IMG/VR virus record: IMGVR_UViG_2671180574_000007
Span: 1-8,354 of that record
Source: a virus
Taxonomy: Duplodnaviria; Heunggongvirae; Uroviricota; Caudoviricetes
Length of the DNA stretch: 8,354 nucleotides
Strand: one strand, 5' to 3'
The notes below the pieces were generated by a model that saw only the letters and a program-made list of their open reading frames with translations, did no database searches and was not told the origin of the DNA. Positions within the stretch are counted from its first letter, which is position 1, and the number at the start of each line of letters is the position of its first letter. Positions 1 through 8,354 of this stretch are shown one piece after another. A program made the position numbers and the translations under genes.

Positions 1-122
1 GAAGCATGGGCTGAGCGGCAGTTAAAAAAGGTAACTAGGTAACAAGGTTGATTTTTCCGGAATCTGTGGTAAATTCGTCATAACGATGGGCGTTTTATGC
101 CTGACGTTAGAAGAGTTTCTAC

Positions 123-146
123 AACCCGCCGCCGAGCGGGTTTTTT
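123..146 (+). terminator. Rho-independent terminator (stem cccgc/gcggg, 6-nt loop, T6 tail)
   Basis: Hairpin 125-129/136-140 with flanking A-T pairs, followed by TTTTTT at 141-146; sits downstream of a frame-1 stop at 40-42. Confidence 0.6.
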
Positions 147-266
147 ATGACTGAAATCGCGTCAGTACAGTAAACGCGCTGGTGGCGGTGAATACCTGTC
201 TTTCAGCTTGCTGGCTTTTTCGACAAGAGTTATTGGTGTGTCACGTTAACCGGAAAAGGAAAAGAC

Positions 267-464
267 ATGCTAAAACAGCAGGATATGACAGAAACCGCCA
301 GAGTGGTGTTTAATGAATTAAGCGTTACCGAACCGGCGACAGTCGGGGAGATAGCGCAGAATACTTACCTTTCACGCGAACGCTGCCAGTTAATACTGAC
401 CCAGCTGGTTATGGCGGGTCTGGCAGACTATCAGTTCGGTTGTTACAGACGCCTTCCGCAGTGA
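267..464 (+). CDS. Small winged-helix DNA-binding protein, FaeA/PapI-like (hypothetical regulator, 65 aa)
   Basis: ATG with AGGA-type Shine-Dalgarno about 8 nt upstream; pattern VVFNEL...TVGEIAQNTYLSRERCQLILTQLVMAGL resembles PapI/FaeA-type small winged-helix regulators; intrinsic terminator overlaps the stop codon. Confidence 0.5.
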   Translation: MLKQQDMTETARVVFNELSVTEPATVGEIAQNTYLSRERCQLILTQLVMAGLADYQFGCYRRLPQ

Positions 465-476
465 AGGCTTTTTTAT
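450..476 (+). terminator. Rho-independent terminator overlapping the stop of the 65-aa ORF
   Basis: Perfect 6-bp stem gccttc(451-456)/gaaggc(463-468), 6-nt loop, then TTTTTT(469-474)ATTTG. Confidence 0.65.
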
Positions 477-493
477 TTGTGGTAAATGGGCGG

Positions 494-582
494 CTGGTGG
501 GTGTTAGGGGCACCCACCAGCCATCTGCTCATGCGTTGGGTTCACAAGCAAACCTCAGGCCCACTGCTTTGCGCAAAAGCAG
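494..582 (+). promoter_or_regulatory. Structured leader upstream of the methyltransferase gene (two stable hairpins, neither terminator-like)
   Basis: Perfect 10-bp inverted repeat ctggtgggtg/cacccaccag (494-503/511-520, 7-nt loop) and 7-bp stem ctgcttt/aaagcag (564-570/576-582); no T-run after either. Confidence 0.4.
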
Positions 583-614
583 AATGAGCCTATCAGAGAC
601 AGGCTTAATGATCC

Positions 615-1673
615 ATGCTTAATACTGTAAAAATATCCAGTTGTGAGTTAATCAACGCCGACTGCCTGGAATTTATCCGGTCGTTACCCGAAAATTCTGT
701 TGACCTGATAGTCACGGACCCGCCGTACTTTAAAGTGAAGCCTGAGGGCTGGGATAACCAGTGGAAGGGCGACGATGATTACCTGAAGTGGCTGGACCAG
801 TGTCTGGCGCAGTTCTGGCGGGTGCTGAAACCTGCCGGAAGTCTTTACCTGTTCTGTGGTCATCGCCTGGCATCTGATATCGAAATCATGATGCGTGAAC
901 GCTTCAGTGTGCTGAACCATATTATCTGGGCGAAGCCGTCCGGACGCTGGAACGGATGCAACAAGGAAAGCCTGCGGGCGTATTTCCCCGCCACAGAGCG
1001 CATTCTGTTCGCGGAACATTATCAGGGGCCGTATCGTCCGAAAGATGCCGGGTATGCGGCGAAGGGCAGTGCACTGAAACAGCATGTGATGGCCCCGCTG
1101 ATTTCTTACTTTCGTGATGCGCGAGCTGCCCTGGGGATAACGGCAAAACAGATTGCAGATGCCACAGGAAAGAAAAACATGGTGTCGCACTGGTTCAGTG
1201 CCGGTCAGTGGCAGTTGCCGAATGAAAGCGATTATCTGAAATTACAGGCGCTGTTTGCCCGGGTGGCAGAAGAGAAGCATCGGCGTGGTGAACTGGAAAA
1301 GCTCCACCACCAGCTGGTGGATACGTATACCTCACTGAACCGGCAGTATGCGGAGCTGCTGAGTGAATATAAACATCTGCGGCGGTATTTTGGCGTGACG
1401 GTGCAGGTGCCGTATACCGATGTGTGGACGCATAAACCGGTGCAGTTCTATCCCGGGAAACATCCGTGCGAAAAACCGGCAGAAATGCTGCAGCAGATAA
1501 TCAGCGCTAGCAGTCGTCCGGGTGACCTGATTGCAGATTTTTTCATGGGGTTGGGTTCGACAGTGAAAGCGGCACTGGCGCTCGGGCGTCGTGCAATTGG
1601 CGTTGAGCTGGAGACTGAACGTTTTGAGCAGACGGTTCGGGAAGTACAGGATTTAGTCAGCCAGAACGGATGA
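615..1673 (+). CDS. DNA methyltransferase, beta-class (motif IV before motif I), probable N6-adenine specificity; orphan (no adjacent restriction enzyme)
   Basis: 352-aa ORF; N-terminal LIVTDPPYF (motif IV, DPPY) and C-terminal DFFMGLGST (motif I, FxGxG AdoMet site); central insert with HTH-like/coiled-coil segment typical of a target-recognition region. Weak Shine-Dalgarno. Confidence 0.88.
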   Translation: MLNTVKISSCELINADCLEFIRSLPENSVDLIVTDPPYFKVKPEGWDNQWKGDDDYLKWLDQCLAQFWRVLKPAGSLYLFCGHRLASDIEIMMRERFSVLNHIIWAKPSGRWNGCNKESLRAYFPATERILFAEHYQGPYRPKDAGYAAKGSALKQHVMAPLISYFRDARAALGITAKQIADATGKKNMVSHWFSAGQWQLPNESDYLKLQALFARVAEEKHRRGELEKLHHQLVDTYTSLNRQYAELLSEYKHLRRYFGVTVQVPYTDVWTHKPVQFYPGKHPCEKPAEMLQQIISASSRPGDLIADFFMGLGSTVKAALALGRRAIGVELETERFEQTVREVQDLVSQNG

Positions 1674-1713
1674 TATTGAAGAATTAATTACGCGTCGTTA
1701 TTATGCGGCTCCC

Positions 1714-1789
1714 GGCCCTTTAGCTCAGTGGTGAGAGCGAGCGACTCATAATCGCTTGGTCGTTGGTTCAAACCCAACAGGGGCCACCA
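1714..1789 (+). tRNA. tRNA with anticodon CAU, tRNA-Ile2-like (lysidine-dependent AUA decoder); elongator tRNA-Met not excluded
   Basis: Hand-folded cloverleaf: acceptor 1714-1720/1779-1785 (one G-U), D-stem gctc/gagc, anticodon stem agcga/tcgct with loop cTCATAa (anticodon 1747-1749), T-arm gttgg-ttcaaac-ccaac, discriminator A, encoded CCA. Acceptor and anticodon stems resemble E. coli ileX-type tRNA from memory. Confidence 0.85.
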
Positions 1790-1797
1790 TATCTATC

Positions 1798-1836
1798 AAG
1801 GGGTTACGTTAACAGCGTGACCCCTTCGTTTTTTCT
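1798..1836 (+). terminator. Rho-independent terminator downstream of the tRNA
   Basis: 7-bp stem aaggggt(1798-1804)/acccctt(1820-1826) with structured loop, followed by cgTTTTTT (1829-1834). Confidence 0.65.
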
Positions 1837-2115
1837 AGGATACCTATAGGATACCGTGACAGAGTATAAGCAGGTATAAAAACAACAAGTTACGCAACAT
1901 CATACCTGTCATGAAACTTTAACTATCCGACATGATAGCTGGTCGATGATCACGGATAATCCGTTATGTGGATCCCCATATCGGCATCAGGCCCACCAGC
2001 GTGAAGCGTTTTTCATTTTTCGCGGGTATAAAAAATCGATGGGGCTGGCAGTCCGGAAGACGTCAGGGTACAGAGATTTGACCCGCCCCTCCCTGTGCAT
2101 GGGCACAATAAGTAA

Positions 2116-2139
2116 CCGAAGGCGGAATTCCGCCCTCGG
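2116..2139. repeat. 24-bp near-perfect palindrome (11 of 12 pairs) centred on GAATTC
   Basis: ccgaaggcggaattccgccctcgg; T-rich flank on the minus-strand side, so it could act as a weak terminator for the convergent minus-strand cluster. Confidence 0.55.
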
Positions 2140-2172
2140 TACTCACATATGAGAAACGATATTTCTTCCTCT

Positions 2173-2253
2173 GATACCCAAAATATGGGTATCACAAGTA
2201 ACCCCCAAAATCTGGGTGTTGCTCTTACTACCCAAACTACGGGTAGTTTCCGT
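2173..2253. repeat. Three tandem 27-bp units, each containing a dyad-symmetric core ACCCAAA-N4-GGGT
   Basis: Units 2173-2199, 2200-2226, 2227-2253; cores gatacccaaaatatgggtatc (perfect 8-bp arms), aacccccaaaatctgggtgtt, actacccaaactacgggtagt; centre-to-centre spacing 27 bp. Confidence 0.7.
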
Positions 2254-2265
2254 AATTTCATGGTC

Positions 2266-2285
2266 GAGTTGCAGATCTGCAACTC
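2266..2285. repeat. Perfect 20-bp palindrome centred on AGATCT
   Basis: gagttgcagatctgcaactc, 10 of 10 pairs; no U-run on either side. Confidence 0.7.
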
Positions 2286-2330
2286 ACCCACCAGCCAACG
2301 CAATTTTGCGTTATCGGGAATATCAGCAAG

Positions 2331-2618
2331 TTACCGCCGCAGCCGTTCCGGCTTCTTCCACTGGTAAGTATTTTTCGCGCTCTCCCTCCGTTGTTGAGAA
2401 CGGCGACGGTATGCCAGCAACTCAAGGACTCTTGTTCGTATGTTGCGCATATCCACGCCGTTAAGCTCAATACCGTCACGGAGCATCACCTCAGCCACCA
2501 CACGCGCGTAATTTTCAGCGGTGACTGTATCCGGCTGCGCGGCCTGTTCGTCAGCCAACTGGCTGATTCCACCAGCACAGCGGATTAATCGCAGTATTTC
2601 AGATTCGGTCATTATCAT
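2331..2618 (-). CDS. Hypothetical 95-aa protein translationally coupled to the small terminase gene; possibly a truncated remnant
   Basis: ATG at 2616-2618 overlaps the TGA of the upstream gene (ATGA coupling); Arg-rich C-terminal tail (RRRSQQRRESAKNTYQWKKPERLRR) runs into non-coding palindromic DNA; no recognisable motif. Confidence 0.45.
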   Translation of the reverse strand: MIMTESEILRLIRCAGGISQLADEQAAQPDTVTAENYARVVAEVMLRDGIELNGVDMRNIRTRVLELLAYRRRSQQRRESAKNTYQWKKPERLRR

Positions 2619-3100
2619 GCCTGTTTTGCGACCTCATTCACTACGTCATTTTTTACCATCCGGCTGATAATCTGATTACGCAAATCGTCAATAATTGACT
2701 GCACTCTGTTTACTGCCATCGGTTTAAGCCCGGCATCACGTGCCAGAATATTGGGGAGTTTTGCCAGTTCCTCGCTTACGATTTCCCCCCATATAGCCAT
2801 CTCTTTTCGCACATCATCGGCGGGTATGAGTTGCGCCGTTTCCTGTTCGAACTTGAGGCGCTCACGTTCGGACTGATACCAGGCCTTACGGTCATGTGGC
2901 TCCATTTCTTCCAGTGATGCCGGAACGGGAAGATCAAGAAAACAGGTCAGAATGTCAGTCACCCGATAGAGTTTCAGCTTGTCATGCCCTCCGGCTGGCT
3001 GGATGTTTTTCAGCCTTGCCGCCGCAGTCTGACGACATATTCCCGCTATCGCCGCCAGTTGATTAATGTTCAGCATCAGATTTTTCAGTTCTCGATCCAT
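2615..3100 (-). CDS. Terminase small subunit, lambda Nu1-like (DNA packaging protein), about 161 aa
   Basis: Start placed at the internal ATG (3098-3100) preceded by GGAG 5 nt upstream; the six-frame ORF extends to 3187 without a Shine-Dalgarno. N-terminal HTH pattern LNINQLAAIAGICRQTAAARLKN...GG..KL.LY and downstream helical region align by eye with lambda Nu1. Confidence 0.65.
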   Translation of the reverse strand: MDRELKNLMLNINQLAAIAGICRQTAAARLKNIQPAGGHDKLKLYRVTDILTCFLDLPVPASLEEMEPHDRKAWYQSERERLKFEQETAQLIPADDVRKEMAIWGEIVSEELAKLPNILARDAGLKPMAVNRVQSIIDDLRNQIISRMVKNDVVNEVAKQA

Positions 3101-3371
3101 ACCCGCTCCAGAATGTTTTAAACATGCATCTTGCGAACAACTTTCAGAAGAGTTCAAAAAATGCGCTATATGTTGAGCATAAAACAAGCAAAACTAACAT
3201 ACCAAAAATAAAAATACTTAAAATTCAATATCATATGAAGATGATGATGACGAATGAAAATGCAAAAACTAGCCTTTTTCCGCGCCGCTCCCGCCCCGCG
3301 GCAGGCCACCTCACCGGGAGGACCCACCCAAAAAAGGCGACTGTCACTATTGTTTATGCTCCATGAGCGAC

Positions 3372-3393
3372 AAAACCGCCCGCAGGCGGTTTT
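3372..3393. terminator. Bidirectional intrinsic terminator hairpin
   Basis: aaaaccgcc-cgca-ggcggtttt: 9-bp stem including A/T arms, 4-nt loop; T-run on both strands; lies about 18 nt downstream of the gpI-like stop on the minus strand. Confidence 0.65.
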
Positions 3394-3410
3394 ACATAAA
3401 ACGTTTTGTA

Positions 3411-4052
3411 TCAGCGACCAATCACCACAATCTGGCCGCCATCCCCTTCATCTGCCGTGCTGATCTCTTGCGAAATCACCCGCGACCCGACGCGCATTTC
3501 ACCGTACAGAACAGGCACAACATTGCCCTGGGCAACCATGTTATCCAGAGAGGAGAAATAGGTGTTCTGCTTACCGTTATCCGTGGTGCTGGCTGTTGCT
3601 GTGCTGGCTTTCGGTGCCAGCATCTGTGCAACACCACCAAGTGTCATCGCCGCCCCCATTGAAAAGAGAATGTCACTGAAAGCGATACTGATTCCTGGCA
3701 TCCAGATTGCCGTAGCAATCAGCGCCGCACCAAGCACCGCCTGAAACACGCCGCCACTTTTGGCACCAGCCAGACGCGGTACGATGTGGATCACGGCACC
3801 ATTTTCCAGCGGTTCATTAAGACGGGCTGATAATTCGTTTTCGCCTGTATCACGCCCGGCAATACGCACCTGATACCAACCATCGCTCAGTTTCTGACGA
3901 AACGCTGGGATCTGCATGGCCAGCGCCCGGATGGCTTCGGCCCCCGTTTTCACATGAAGATCGATGCGGCGGCCAAATCGTTGTAAATCCCCGTAAAGGC
4001 AGATGCGTGCCATGCCCGGTGACGCCAGAGGGAGTGTGTGCGTCGCTGCCAT
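3411..4052 (-). CDS. Phage lambda gpI-like tail (tip) assembly protein
   Basis: 213-aa ORF with N-terminal ubiquitin-like region, central hydrophobic Gly/Ala-rich segment and C-terminal block TTDNGKQNTYFSSLDNMVAQGNV.PVLYGEMRVGSRV.SQEISTADEG that matches lambda tail assembly protein I as recalled from memory; GAGAGG Shine-Dalgarno about 10 nt upstream. Confidence 0.6.
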   Translation of the reverse strand: MAATHTLPLASPGMARICLYGDLQRFGRRIDLHVKTGAEAIRALAMQIPAFRQKLSDGWYQVRIAGRDTGENELSARLNEPLENGAVIHIVPRLAGAKSGGVFQAVLGAALIATAIWMPGISIAFSDILFSMGAAMTLGGVAQMLAPKASTATASTTDNGKQNTYFSSLDNMVAQGNVVPVLYGEMRVGSRVISQEISTADEGDGGQIVVIGR

Positions 4053-4141
4053 TTGTCGGTATACCTCTCTCGTTTGCTCAGTTGTTCAGGAATATGGTGC
4101 GGCAGCTCGCCGCCCCACGTGTTCAAAGTACCGCCTTGTTG

Positions 4142-6055
4142 TCATGCTCCATTCGATTTCAGCAATCCACGATAATCGAGGGCCGCGACACCTGCATCTA
4201 TGCGCACCTTCCAGGCGACACCATCAACAGTAAAGCCCACCTGCTCCTCAAGATATGGCGTATCCATACCATCAAGATAAGCGACTTCTATTGTGTCCAT
4301 CCCCTTAGCTGCGGCTACATACCATTCCTTGCTATTGGCCTTATCAAGACGTGGCTCAACAATTACTTCTGCCATATCTTTCACAACGTTAATGATGCCG
4401 GGGTTCTGATTGATAGTGCCCTCATCACCAACCGGAAAGACTGATGACGATGACAGAATGGCGCGACGCGCGGCAGATTCCAGCGCGGCAGGGACCAGAA
4501 CAAAAGCAGGGGTAATATTCAGTGAGTCGCCGTTAGCATCCTCCTGGAGGCGCATCAGCTTACGGGCTTCATCAAGCCCCACCATGTCCATATCCTTCGC
4601 AATAAGATTTTTATGATCGGCATGGAATAACGCTTTACCATCCGTAAACTTGCCGTTGCTGGTTAACAGGAGATAAACCAGATTGCCAACTGTTCTGGCG
4701 GCTGCGCGTCCCATCGCCATGGGGATTGTAGTTAACTGGGTCAGGTCATCGTTGATAATGGCCTGACGGGTAACGGAAAAAATATTCCCGTACGTGGCCA
4801 GCGCAATAGGTACACCTTTATCGCTGGTGGTGATGTATTTATATTCCGCACCTTCCGGTACTTTATCCAGCTTTGAAAAACCATTCAGACCAACGCGCTT
4901 TGCTTCATGAAAGTTTGAAAGCGAACCGGTACGCGTCCATTTCTGGAACGTTTCGCCGCTGTCCTGCCAGCCTTTCAGTACAGATTTTTCAGCCCCACCA
5001 GCCAGAATATGAGAAAAATCACTGCTGCTGTGTGTAAAAGCCGCATTAACAACCTGCGAGCGATTAATAAAACCACTCACAGTGATACCACGATCAACCA
5101 GTGATGCCTGGGCCATTTCAAAAAGGCTCATCATCGCGTAAGGGTTGCCTCGTTCAGGGCGTTCATACCCAAGACGGGAATAAAGCCCCTGACGAATTGC
5201 ATCACCTGTTATGTTTCCGTTTCCGGCATAGATATGAGGCGGGGTATTTTTATTGGATGGCGTGGACTCGCGCCCCAGCTCGTTCAACAGCTTTTCACGG
5301 GCCATTTCCGGTGTACATGATGCATCTTCCAGACACGCCATTTTGATCCCGTCGTAACGACTGCCGAACAGGCTAAACACTTCACTTATTCCATTGATGC
5401 GTTTCTGTTCATTACCAGCAATATTTGCCGCTCCCTGTGGCGGTGTAATCATTCCTTTAATGGTTTCCGGCATATGTAAAAAATCTCCTGTGCGCTTCGA
5501 TTCAATTCGCGCCATTGCTCTGACGGATGGCAACAATTCATCAGCAAAACCGTGCTTAAGGCATTCTTTCCCGTCCATCCAGGTTTCATCTTCCAGCATG
5601 GCGGTAATTTCCTGTGCTGATTTGCCCGTTTTTCTGGCATAAGCAGGGACTAACACGGTTTCCACCTTATCCAGCAAATCAGCATAATCACGCATATCAC
5701 CAGCATTTCCGCCAGAGATACCCCACGGCTTATGTATCATCATCATGGCGTTTTCCGGCATCACAACACGATCGCCAGCCATTGCGACCACCGAAGCCAT
5801 TGAAGCCGCAACACCATCGATATAAACCGTAATGTCTGCCGGATGATTCCGTAGCAGGTTATAGATGGCGATGCCTTCAAACACATCACCACCTGGTGAA
5901 TGGATCCTCAGATTGATATGTGAAACATCGCCAAGGGCTTTCAGGTCTTCCGCGAACTGCTTTGCAGTAACACCGAAGCCGCCAATCTCCTCATAGATAG
6001 ATATATCCGCCGCTCCGCGAACATCCGCCGCCTTAATGGTGTACCAGCGATTCAT
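4142..6055 (-). CDS. Fusion protein: ClpP-like (S14) prohead protease N-terminal domain plus HK97-fold major capsid protein C-terminal domain
   Basis: 637 aa; N-terminal ...LRIHSPGGDVFEGIAIYN...GVAASMASVV...MMIHKPWG... carries ClpP catalytic Ser/His context; C-terminal roughly 330 aa has capsid-like architecture (motif-level assignment, weaker); ATGA overlap with upstream small ORF. Confidence 0.75.
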   Translation of the reverse strand: MNRWYTIKAADVRGAADISIYEEIGGFGVTAKQFAEDLKALGDVSHINLRIHSPGGDVFEGIAIYNLLRNHPADITVYIDGVAASMASVVAMAGDRVVMPENAMMMIHKPWGISGGNAGDMRDYADLLDKVETVLVPAYARKTGKSAQEITAMLEDETWMDGKECLKHGFADELLPSVRAMARIESKRTGDFLHMPETIKGMITPPQGAANIAGNEQKRINGISEVFSLFGSRYDGIKMACLEDASCTPEMAREKLLNELGRESTPSNKNTPPHIYAGNGNITGDAIRQGLYSRLGYERPERGNPYAMMSLFEMAQASLVDRGITVSGFINRSQVVNAAFTHSSSDFSHILAGGAEKSVLKGWQDSGETFQKWTRTGSLSNFHEAKRVGLNGFSKLDKVPEGAEYKYITTSDKGVPIALATYGNIFSVTRQAIINDDLTQLTTIPMAMGRAAARTVGNLVYLLLTSNGKFTDGKALFHADHKNLIAKDMDMVGLDEARKLMRLQEDANGDSLNITPAFVLVPAALESAARRAILSSSSVFPVGDEGTINQNPGIINVVKDMAEVIVEPRLDKANSKEWYVAAAKGMDTIEVAYLDGMDTPYLEEQVGFTVDGVAWKVRIDAGVAALDYRGLLKSNGA

Positions 6056-6261
6056 TGTTCCCCCACCGATGCAAAACCATTCTGATTAAGCCAGGTGTTT
6101 ACGGCATGTCTGACAATCTGCGCCACACCTGGTAATGGTTGGTCAGGATGATGATTTATATGGTCGATCCTGTACTGCTTAAGGCGCATAACGGTCTGCG
6201 CATCCAGATGAACGGAACCACCTCTGGTATCACCTGTGTTCAGGTCATTAATACAACTCAC
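6052..6261 (-). CDS. Hypothetical 69-aa protein, first gene of the capsid operon
   Basis: GTG start with strong GAGGAAG Shine-Dalgarno 5 nt upstream; stop overlaps the fusion-gene ATG; AT-rich putative promoter region upstream (6262-6360). Confidence 0.55.
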   Translation of the reverse strand: MSCINDLNTGDTRGGSVHLDAQTVMRLKQYRIDHINHHPDQPLPGVAQIVRHAVNTWLNQNGFASVGEQ

Positions 6262-6361
6262 AGCAACTTCCTCTGACTGACTAAACTATGCACATTATTG
6301 ATCTATAAAAGTGGTAAATAAACATATTTCTATCATAAAAACAGATTAATTAGATTCAGAC

Positions 6362-6387
6362 ACAAAAAAGCCGGATTTCTCCGGCTT
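6362..6387 (-). terminator. Rho-independent terminator on the minus strand between the origin and the capsid operon
   Basis: 8-bp stem aagccgga/tccggctt (6368-6375/6380-6387), 4-nt loop; on the minus strand followed by TTTTTTGTG. Confidence 0.7.
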
Positions 6388-6514
6388 CTGTCACTCGTTG
6401 CTTAAAACGGTATGTTATCCCCGTACGGATCATCATTCCCCGCCTGTTGTTTTGGTGTGCTTCGCTGTCATAGGCTTTATCTCACAGCAGTAAATTAAAA
6501 TTTTTGCGTTTTAA

Positions 6515-6745
6515 CCCTTCACCTGTTCACCTTTTGATATTTTCTCTATTAATTCATAATGTTAAGGGGTGAACAGTTTCAAAAAAACTATTCACCAACT
6601 GTTCACCACTGTTCACCCTTGAAGCTCAATAAACAATCAAAAAGGTGAACAGTGAATAGTTTGGTGAACAGTTCATAAATAACTGCTCACCCTATAATAT
6701 ACTGATATAAAAGATATTTATGACAGGGTGAACAGTGGTGAACAG
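6515..6745. repeat. Iteron cluster: putative P4-type replication origin (octamer TGTTCACC / GGTGAACA)
   Basis: Perfect octamers at 6524-6531(+), 6568-6575(-), 6600-6607(+), 6610-6617(+), 6644-6651(-), 6663-6670(-), 6727-6734(-), 6737-6744(-), plus degenerate copies (6517-6523, 6590-6596, 6652-6659, 6684-6691); AT-rich flanks; directly downstream of the primase stop. Confidence 0.8.
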
Positions 6746-6758
6746 TTATTCCATAAGT

Positions 6759-8354
6759 TTAATTTTTGCTATCGTCATTAGTGACCGATACACATGATGG
6801 CATCCAGTCTTCTGATTCCTCCGTCAGTGTCACGTTTGAACGCAAACCGTGCTTCGTTTTCCGTTTCATATACTCCCTGCCATATTCCGCCATTGCCCCC
6901 GGCATATCTTTACCGAAGCGCGTCAGTGTTACAGGTTTACCAAACCCATGTGCCCTCATATAAGCCAGATAGGCATGATAGAGATACCTGCGTGGGCTGA
7001 ATGGCACAATTTCAGCATTACCCACTAACAGGCCATCACACATTACCGACGCCATGAGATAGCCGCAGAAGTCCACCAGCGAATCCCCCTCTCGCTTTAT
7101 CGCCAGTGCTTCTTCAGATTTCTGCTGCTCATATAACAGGCGTCTGGCTTCGTCCTGGTCAGCAAACCGTGTAAGCAGATGGCGAATCACTACCGCCAGC
7201 TCACCTTCTATTTTTTCCGCCAGCATTGGATCACGTTCGTTCTCCGGTACAACTTCCGAAAAATTGAATATCACCCGACGACGTGAGATCCCCCCACTGC
7301 GGTCACTGAATGACATGGCGTTATTGTTAACCGCCAGCACTACTGCCGGAATACGCGTTGAGTAGGGGGCTTTGTGTTTCGGGTCAATTGCCACCTTGTC
7401 ACCGCCTGTAATAGCCTTAATCCCTGCCCCATCACCAGCGTAGCGGGTCATATCCGGCATGATAATCAGCGAAAAGCCAACCACTAACGCGCGTTCCCTT
7501 GCATCTTCCAGCGCCTTCATGCTTGCCGATACTGTGTTGGCCTTACCCGCCAGCATGGTGCAAATCTCCGCCATCACGCTTTTACCACTTCCCCCTGGAC
7601 CTGTTACCTCAATGAATAACTGCCAGTCGTACCGGTTCGCCAGCACCATGAATAATGCAGCCAGTACGCGATCCGCCTTGCGGTCATTCTCAGCCACCGA
7701 ACGGCGTAACCACTTCCAGAAATTCGGCGCATGTGTTGCCAGCGTTTCCCCCTCTGCTGGTGGGCTGAAAGGTAATTCACTGGCAATTAACAACCAGTCG
7801 TTTTTGTTATGCTCCCGAAAATTACCTGTTCTGGTATCAAATACCCCGTTACTGAATCCAATCAGGTTACGGGCTGTATTCCCCATAACAGGCAAACTTA
7901 ACTTCATGGTATCGACCGCCGATTTAATGGCGTTCTGCGAATAGCTGATCTCCGCATCAATGAAAATCTGCGCCATAGCTCGCTGTAATTCTTTATCCTG
8001 TACTGGCTCCCATACAACGCCGTTGTAATGGTGAACAGTGTCAGAGTCAGCATGAATCGCCAGTTCACCGCCATAATGTGCCAGGAGAACTTCGCCGCGT
8101 TGACTTGCTCCCATCTGGTTAAGCGCCAGTGATGAAGCGTTATCGTCTTTTACCCGCTCTTTTTTCTTTACAGGCAGTTCAACTACCTTTTTCTTTTCCG
8201 CCAGCTCTGCCCGTTCACGTTCCAGATATTCACGCCAGTTCTCCCGTTTCTGGCTGTGCATTCCTTCAGGGTAATAATCAGCATCCCTGACACCTGCCTC
8301 TGCCAGTTTCTGCCCGATGGTATTAACAAGCCCCGGACGCAATAACCCCGCCTG
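6759..8354 (-). CDS. Primase/helicase of the phage-plasmid P4 alpha family (C-terminal part; N-terminus beyond the window end)
   Basis: Reading frame stays open to the window edge (the 8342 start in the ORF track is a TTG, not the true start); Walker A GPGGSGKS; stop TAA at 6759-6761; followed by matching iterons. Confidence 0.85.
   Translation of the reverse strand, partial: QAGLLRPGLVNTIGQKLAEAGVRDADYYPEGMHSQKRENWREYLERERAELAEKKKVVELPVKKKERVKDDNASSLALNQMGASQRGEVLLAHYGGELAIHADSDTVHHYNGVVWEPVQDKELQRAMAQIFIDAEISYSQNAIKSAVDTMKLSLPVMGNTARNLIGFSNGVFDTRTGNFREHNKNDWLLIASELPFSPPAEGETLATHAPNFWKWLRRSVAENDRKADRVLAALFMVLANRYDWQLFIEVTGPGGSGKSVMAEICTMLAGKANTVSASMKALEDARERALVVGFSLIIMPDMTRYAGDGAGIKAITGGDKVAIDPKHKAPYSTRIPAVVLAVNNNAMSFSDRSGGISRRRVIFNFSEVVPENERDPMLAEKIEGELAVVIRHLLTRFADQDEARRLLYEQQKSEEALAIKREGDSLVDFCGYLMASVMCDGLLVGNAEIVPFSPRRYLYHAYLAYMRAHGFGKPVTLTRFGKDMPGAMAEYGREYMKRKTKHGLRSNVTLTEESEDWMPSCVSVTNDDSKN

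Follow-up and report, generated by a model that had tools for sequence, protein, structure and literature searches.

Does a small terminase (TerS) gene without a large terminase (TerL) gene behind it belong to a satellite that redirects the packaging of a helper phage, and what is the short gene that holds the place of TerL? These questions are raised by positions 1 to 8,354 of IMG/VR virus record IMGVR_UViG_2671180574_000007 (Caudoviricetes), a stretch of 8,354 nucleotides (nt) referred to here as the window. On its minus strand a TerS open reading frame (ORF) of 161 amino acids (aa; 2615..3100), with an ATG start and a GGAG 8 nt upstream, is followed by an ORF of 95 aa (2331..2618), here called p95. 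An earlier reading made from the letters of the DNA alone (the sequence-only reading) had described the first as a Nu1-like small terminase lacking its TerL, the classic satellite strategy, and the second as either a TerL remnant truncated at a recombination junction or a small partner of TerS. Both ORFs are real, and they overlap: the TGA stop of TerS shares letters with the first ATG of p95 (ATGA; GCATGATAATG). A mechanically called TerS ORF reaches a TTG at 3187; the ATG is the start in RefSeq and in all homologues. For p95 a second ATG (2612) lies two codons on, 2 nt past the TerS stop; it is used by RefSeq and most homologues and would give a protein of 93 aa.

The reading of a TerS without TerL as a satellite strategy holds in its context, which is that of a satellite of the phage-inducible chromosomal island (PICI) type that carries both a cos and a TerS of its own. 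Window 1714-8354 is probably the right-hand three quarters of such a satellite of ~10.8 kb, and the region of the two ORFs its packaging-specificity module (cos, TerS and p95). Many Escherichia coli genomes contain islands that match this part of the window at 99% identity. In strain Z0117EC0133 the complete element lies between a tRNA-Ile gene (next to mug) and nfeF and encodes, in order, an integrase, a hypothetical protein, a helix-turn-helix (HTH) regulator, YlcI/YnfO, an Icd-like protein, a hypothetical protein, DUF4222, a primase, a ClpP/capsid fusion, a tail-protein pseudogene, a gpI-like gene, the DUF1441 TerS and p95. A near-identical gene set (13 annotated genes) makes up a 10,790 bp circular record from strain Z1323HEC0475 (NZ_CP148328.1), which is probably an excised or replicating satellite and not the 'plasmid' of its label, and many IMG/VR contigs with this island measure 10-11 kb. 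The circular assembly and the occurrence of the island in viral contigs of IMG/VR are indirect signs of induction, packaging and transfer by a helper. The core components of PICIs have been given as an integrase, a regulator, a primase-replicase, a capsid gene and a small terminase that redirects packaging (De Sousa et al., PMC10085698). Here the integrase is present in the 99% identical copies, beyond the window, and a hybrid tRNA gene at the island end records a site-specific crossover. The island has its own primase (6759-8342) followed by an ori (iterons at 6524-6744), its size falls within the ~10-15 kb of PICIs, and it carries neither lysis genes nor a complete virion set, the phage-like genes being capsid/protease, gpI and TerS only. 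The small HTH regulator is annotated beside int in the complete copies, again beyond the window; tRNA-Ile2 PICIs have been described as lacking alpA (PMC10111431). No TerL is encoded in the window or in the complete copies (Z0117EC0133 and the circular NZ_CP148328.1).

Small terminase, cos site and packaging specificity

The 161 aa protein matches PF07278 (DUF1441) with an E-value of 1.7e-36 (125.8 bits against a cut-off of 35.1; residues 10-148 on positions 1-145 of the 147 in the profile) and phrog_141, 'terminase small subunit', with one of 1.5e-57. Its identification as a small terminase is borne out by these matches; its placement in the Nu1 family is not, as there is no PF07471 (Nu1) match in Pfam and BLASTP against lambda Nu1 gave E = 2.8. 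A distant profile match to phrog_57 (Nu1-type; 1.3e-6, TerS residues 70-142) suggests a remote kinship only. Phage homologues that are 54-71% identical occur in mEp460 (66%), Ayreon, phi458 and the Stx-type phage 1720a-02 (54.5%), and the gene is gene 1 in lambdoid phages. In both mEp460 and 1720a-02 the genes that come next are those for a gpA-type TerL, a gpW-like protein and the portal, after which mEp460 has a ClpP-capsid fusion. A terS homologue in some Gram-negative PICIs was already noted by Fillol-Salom et al. 2018 (PMC6092414); carriage of TerS by a PICI is a known component, of which the DUF1441 TerS of this island is an uncharacterised member and not a new kind.

A cos site directly precedes the TerS gene. 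Over the 200 nt before TerS the sequence can be aligned with both the mEp460 and the lambda cos junction, and cosQ and cosN, 186-226 nt upstream of the ATG, are ~97% identical to those of mEp460-type phages. A cosQ-like heptamer, GGGTCCT (3319..3325, minus strand), aligns with its counterparts in lambda, mEp460, 1720a-02 and the presumed helper prophage of E. coli A20 described below. The predicted cosN (3285..3296, minus strand) would yield, at nick positions that are likewise predicted, a 12 nt cohesive end GGGCGGGAGCGG, which stands opposite lambda GGGCGGCGACCT and is identical in the cos of mEp460 and of the A20 helper prophage. The predicted end and the TerS start are 197 bp apart (191 bp in lambda), and the pattern cosQ-N(15-30)-GGGCGG occurs once in the window where 0.01 occurrences are expected. 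The flanks 3245-3325 and 3101-3144 are ~95-100% identical to helper-type phages. The interval between them (3145..3244, minus strand), ~bp 53-152 from the predicted left end, is divergent and forms the putative satellite-specific part of cosB; in lambda the corresponding interval contains R3 to R1.

A lambdoid prophage of E. coli A20 (NZ_CP028755.1, 4585461-4607200) has its terL gene interrupted by this island cargo, here accompanied by another integrase, in the order prophage TerS, TerL N-terminal fragment (331 aa), island, TerL C-terminal fragment (374 aa), portal and capsid. The cos sites of satellite and prophage do not differ in cosQ, in cosN, in the ~50 bp that follow or in the final 44 bp before the ATG; it is in the interval between that they diverge. 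The two TerS proteins share 42 of 60 residues (70%) over residues 1-60, 33 of 43 (77%) over 61-103, 27 of 47 (57%) over 104-150 and 2 of 11 over 151-161. Their presumed recognition helix and wing differ (VHRQTAAARLQNLPVAGGHESNL in the A20 prophage versus ICRQTAAARLKNIQPAGGHD-KL in the satellite). Since the nuclease sites are shared and cosB and TerS are divergent, the pattern of satellite and presumed helper fits a switch of packaging specificity. That only cosB and TerS diverge between the two is, like the family assignments, the cos homology and the absence of TerL, established at the level of sequence. The possibility that a TerL lies just outside the window in the same operon did not hold for the window copy or for tRNA-integrated copies; in the terL-inserted islands the C-terminal TerL fragment lies 365 nt downstream. 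A phage capsid gene is found ~3.2 kb beyond p95 in six IMG/VR loci (L016, L019, L022, L023, L026 and L027), which may represent the same terL-inserted arrangement. A second cos site was also observed in some islands: it is inverted and just upstream of p95 in the island EcCICFT073 and several islands with a Nu1-type TerS (L086, 10941-10982 on the plus strand and 11751-11710 on the minus strand; L037; L060), and direct in the circular 10.79 kb copy (L002), where it lies at 5939-5979 between primase and capsid. The window is without it.

The Stx-type prophage that flanks the island in the window was considered as the helper and rejected: its nearest relative, 1720a-02, has a DUF1441 TerS (54.5%) and cosQ but a different cosN region. 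The cosN match favours phages of the mEp460/A20 type as helper. On induction of a helper with a head module of the mEp460/cdtI/Gifsy-2 type (named from homology only), the satellite TerS would bind the satellite-specific cosB and bring the helper's gpA-type TerL to the shared cosN, perhaps by direct contact or by mixing with helper TerS via the conserved central region. Satellite concatemers would then be cut and packaged in place of phage DNA. We infer cosB binding and TerL recruitment by the satellite TerS on two grounds, homology and the fact that cosB and TerS diverge together.

Some observations weigh against this reading. The acidic C-terminal tail of phage TerS is absent from the satellite TerS (KNDVVNEVAKQA versus EAGADDEEELQQEE). 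In lambda the C-terminal 30-40 residues of TerS bind TerL (PMC9026076) and direct recruitment of TerL by the satellite protein is therefore uncertain, a hetero-oligomer with helper TerS of the Rpp kind being just as possible. No repeats resembling R3, R2 or R1 were found in the cosB of the satellite or of mEp460 (12-mers, up to 2 mismatches), whereas this script does find the three sites of lambda, near bp 53, 109 and 155 (lambda R3 lies at bp 50-65; PMC9026076). The tail-gene pseudogene is also a sign of some decay of the island. Finally, the satellite TerS may be an interference factor resembling Rpp of sister islands, which would form mixed oligomers with helper TerS and divert it to the satellite cosB without itself binding TerL. 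This is a serious alternative to direct recruitment, although on balance we consider it somewhat unlikely. The central region is indeed the best conserved with helper TerS (33/43), the C-terminal end shares 2 of 11 residues and lacks the acidic tail, and Rpp provides a precedent in islands with the same p95 and cos layout. However, the satellite TerS is a full-length homologue that retains 57% identity to the helper protein over residues 104-150, while Rpp is shorter (144-153 aa) and has no detectable similarity to it. PDB sequence searches with TerS or p95 returned no Rpp entry (6HLK/6HN7); a genuine Rpp of a sister island reaches 5e-31 against 6HLK.

Integration site, gene content and mobility

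The element ends at a hybrid tRNA gene with a CAU anticodon, of the Ile2/ileX type (1714..1789, plus strand), and not at a recombination junction near 2330-2420, where the sequence-only reading had placed one and none was found. The 5' half of this tRNA gene is identical to a tRNA borne by Stx phages and the 3' half is of the island/chromosome type (the chromosomal counterpart is annotated as tRNA-Ile in RefSeq). On this sequence evidence the satellite is therefore integrated in a prophage-carried tRNA-Ile2 gene, in the orientation opposite to phage late transcription. Window positions 1-1793 represent a Stx/lambdoid late-regulatory region (a small ORF, a DNA methylase and the tRNA) that is 93-95% identical to Stx2 phages. 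The junction of prophage tRNA and island seen in the window is present in no complete E. coli genome of the collection searched. Elements of this type, tRNA-Ile2 PICIs that carry a CLP_protease gene and have a distinctive integrase, have been mentioned (PMC10111431), and the literature searched held no experimental study of this subtype.

The primase-helicase gene (6759..8342, minus strand; D5_N, DUF5906 and Pox_D5) is cut by the window end. Directly downstream of it are eight copies of the iteron TGTTCACC, on both strands (6524-6744), which are the likely origin of replication; the pattern has nine matches in the window against 0.29 expected. The fusion of a ClpP-like prohead protease with a major capsid protein (637 aa; 4142..6055, minus strand; PF00574 and PF25209) is 58% identical to mEp460 gp05, with a 29 aa gap in the linker between protease and capsid. 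A 69 aa ORF (6052-6261; phrog_4934) overlaps the start of the fusion gene by 4 nt. The lambda gpI-like tail assembly protein (3411..4052, minus strand; PF06805, 3.9e-23; phrog_32) is intact, and a remnant of a tail-protein pseudogene is placed at ~3950-4111 by RefSeq annotation of near-identical copies. Tail assembly inhibition (Tai) was considered as an account of the gpI-like gene and rejected, the Tai paper making no mention of gpI, gpK or 'tail assembly protein'. NCBIfam and PADLOC profiles gave no match for TerS, gpI, the 69 aa ORF or p95, and those of PADLOC none for the capsid fusion.

The order capsid, tail-protein remnant, gpI, cos and TerS is what large deletions would leave of a circular lambdoid genome. 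Together with the pseudogene, this order might suggest a decayed prophage fragment without present function, of which TerS and p95 would be relics, but this reading is very unlikely. All ORFs of the island are intact, with 97-100% conservation in many strains; 185 of 5426 complete E. coli genomes carry the p95-TerS-cos module at >= 80% coverage, and one complete copy is a circle of 10.79 kb. Integrase, primase and iteron ori all belong to the island itself, and islands of this type occupy three kinds of attachment site (chromosomal tRNA, phage-borne tRNA and the terL gene of a prophage), a spread that implies ongoing mobility.

p95 and the end of the late operon

The p95 protein matches phrog_1561 from end to end (residues 3-95 on positions 1-93 of the 93 in the profile). 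The family comprises 852 clusters at 90% identity from Escherichia (including E. albertii), Shigella and Salmonella, nearly all of 93-97 aa, and p95 is found in 1571 of the 5426 complete E. coli genomes (29%), with up to six copies per genome. It is also a narrow family: an exhaustive HMMER scan of 1.8 billion representatives yielded 38 clusters only, and a scan of GTDB species representatives a single locus, in Shigella flexneri. Matches from outside the family in the search of 1.8 billion proteins were long repeat proteins only, the one that was scanned being rich in SEA domains. A resemblance of p95 to ankyrin/DARPin proteins (5e-6 for the whole sequence) was treated as spurious, each individual stretch having an i-Evalue above 100. 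The C-terminal tail (YRRRSQQRRESAKNTYQWKKPERLRR) is basic, as had been described, but it is not of low complexity: it is the best conserved region of the family, and its motif Y-x-W-K-K-P-E-R-L-R-R is nearly invariant even in members that are 44-47% identical overall. AlphaFold2 predicts three helices (5-15, 34-47 and 54-84) with a mean predicted local distance difference test score (pLDDT) of 74, compared with 59 for a first, less diverse alignment. Foldseek of this model against PDB and BFVD gave no match below E = 0.5, and p95 has no match in Pfam, NCBIfam or PADLOC.

The genes next to p95 were compared in 80 IMG/VR loci, one Shigella locus, EcCICFT073 and a distant homologue, and throughout, in five packaging architectures, p95 is the last co-oriented gene of the late operon. 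It follows a DUF1441 TerS in 26 loci, a full-length Nu1-type TerS in 34 (gaps of 11 to ~255 nt), Rpp with a 279 nt gap (5e-31 against PDB 6HLK) and the intact 553 aa TerL of modules of the capsid-forming PICI (cf-PICI) type in 13 (gap of 13-14 nt); a 47% identical relative is preceded by a 175 aa protein with a Nu1-type HTH. The Nu1-type TerS of the sister islands is 38% identical to lambda Nu1, the C-terminal region included. These sister PICIs (e.g. L032, 9435-9989) have no TerL in their 10-11 kb contigs, and their TerS has no PDB match and so is not Rpp. The regular junction with DUF1441 TerS, which is the ATGA overlap (4 nt) or a 2 nt spacing in all 26 loci, would suit a dedicated partner or adaptor of that terminase, as the sequence-only reading had envisaged. 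Such a role is nonetheless highly improbable. Across the first four contexts p95 is 74-100% identical (74-89% after Nu1-type TerS, Rpp or TerL, with gaps of 11-279 nt), and the variants of its tail are independent of the type of neighbour, which speaks against a specific pairing with DUF1441 TerS.

Next to no credence can be given to p95 as an N-terminal TerL remnant cut at a recombination junction, for although it holds the slot that TerL takes after the homologous phage TerS, and terL-inserted islands do have a TerL fragment downstream, it belongs to a family conserved at full length (93-97 aa) and most strongly at the C-terminus, has no similarity to mEp460 TerL in the alignment that had been proposed (BLASTP, E = 5.5) and follows an intact 553 aa TerL in islands of the cf-PICI type. 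The full-length conservation and the lack of similarity to TerL refute the remnant reading; on this evidence p95 is an independent family. In 50,697 phage records tBLASTn gave one weak match, in Klebsiella phage P12620-1 (PQ569648.1, 86675-98836; L095), a sparsely annotated record of 106 kb in which the p95-like ORF is preceded by a TerL gene and followed by an integrase gene. This segment looks like a circularised satellite of the cf-PICI type that was co-assembled with phage sequence or is embedded in it.

Published experiments on EcCICFT073 bear on the function of p95. In this island a p95 homologue lies 279 nt after rppA. When the published primers (Table S5, PMC6739421) were mapped onto the genome, the 'c1505' clone in pBAD18 was seen to hold the whole p95 gene and the 'c1504-07::cat' marker to replace it. 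Of the genes that had been cloned, c1503 (rppA) alone blocked lambda; islands with c1504-07::cat, including c1503* derivatives, are in the strain list, and transfer was RppA-dependent (PMC6739421). Because the pBAD18 clone left lambda unblocked and the marked islands used for transfer are without p95, it can be inferred that p95 in EcCICFT073 is neither a lambda-interference factor nor essential for transfer, which weighs against an essential role in packaging. In EcCIEDL933, mutation of 'hypothetical gene 1792', which may or may not be the p95 homologue, severely lowers transfer of the cf-PICI.

Downstream of p95 the operon has a structured non-coding tail (2100..2330, minus strand). The sequence-only reading had noted palindromic DNA here, and 2100-2335 is indeed densely palindromic, with about seven hairpins in 236 nt. 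They include a near-perfect 30 bp palindrome around AGATCT (2261-2290), three 17 bp palindromes TACCC-N7-GGGTA spaced exactly 27 nt apart (2175-2191, 2202-2218 and 2229-2245) and a terminator-like hairpin (2115-2140). As RNA, 2100-2335 folds at -101 kcal/mol compared with -63 kcal/mol for shuffled sequences (z = -8.4). An Rfam scan of 1780-3420 gave no credible match. Among 58 related loci, 28 have the palindrome array behind p95; these represent three island types, and their half-sites are conserved and their spacers variable. This distribution points to a separable module, which may consist either of protein-binding sites or of RNA structure.

The synteny of p95 and its conserved basic tail suggest a late accessory role. 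Our best guess is that it is a non-essential late accessory factor whose nearly invariant C-terminal motif has as its target either a nucleic acid or some acidic partner that many helpers share. A stronger proposal, which we regard as unlikely, is that p95 is a hallmark late effector of enterobacterial PICIs, with a motif that docks onto an acidic packaging element of the helper or binds the RNA hairpin array. A candidate docking site is the acidic tail at the C-terminus of phage TerS, missing from the satellite protein. In the other version, the motif would serve as an arginine-rich peptide that binds the RNA of the hairpin array 3' of the p95 gene.

Implications and comparison with known satellites

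For TerS, the locus confirms the textbook satellite strategy in cos-packaged Gram-negative PICIs, a setting studied so far only via Rpp. The satellite of A20 and its presumed helper form a natural comparison that could be used to map the cosB specificity of DUF1441 terminases. For p95, a wrong lead to TerL is replaced by a very common, uncharacterised PICI family with a sharply conserved C-terminal motif. If p95 were an effector, it would represent a new and widespread layer of interaction between satellite and helper, one that work on EcCICFT073 would have missed because the marked islands used there are without the p95 gene. The presence of the satellite in the tRNA of a Stx-type prophage in the window, and in terL elsewhere, adds to the ways in which satellites embed in likely helpers.

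The island shares with Gram-negative PICIs (Fillol-Salom et al. 2018, PMC6092414; SatelliteFinder, PMC10085698) the integrase, regulator, primase and ori, capsid gene, small terminase, size of ~10.8 kb and tRNA-Ile2 target. It differs from chromosomal tRNA-Ile2 PICIs in that the window copy sits in a prophage-borne tRNA instead of an ileX-type gene. The same logic, in which a satellite TerS without TerL redirects the TerL of the helper, is known from the pac-type Staphylococcus aureus pathogenicity islands (SaPIs; PMC6739421, PMC6092414), although these use headful packaging and an unrelated TerS family in a Gram-positive host. Here, in contrast, the site is a lambda-like cos in which cosN and cosQ are shared and only cosB differs, and no Ppi-type inhibitor was identified in the island.

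Closer relatives are found among the islands that share p95. The Rpp islands (EcCICFT073-type; PDB 6HLK/6HN7) have the same order of cos, specificity gene, p95 and island end, and likewise a cosB unlike that of the helper next to a helper-like cosN. Their specificity protein (RppA/RppC) is a TerS-derived DNA-binding protein of 144-153 aa that requires helper TerS, whereas the TerS of the window is full-length and has no sequence match to it. The cf-PICIs (EcCIEDL933 type) likewise encode capsid and protease, and their final gene is a p95 homologue at a distance of 13 nt from terL. They differ in carrying a full head and packaging set, with an intact TerL in the locus examined, where the window island has the capsid/protease fusion and TerS only; the cf-PICI hallmarks of an own TerL, portal and head-tail connectors are absent from the window and from full island copies. 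Among phages, the head module of the mEp460/cdtI/Gifsy-2 type has a homologous TerS (66%), ClpP-capsid fusion (58%) and cos (~97% over cosQ and cosN). Phages of the mEp460 type continue from TerS into TerL, a gpW-like gene and the portal, whereas the island passes from TerS to p95 and there comes to its end.

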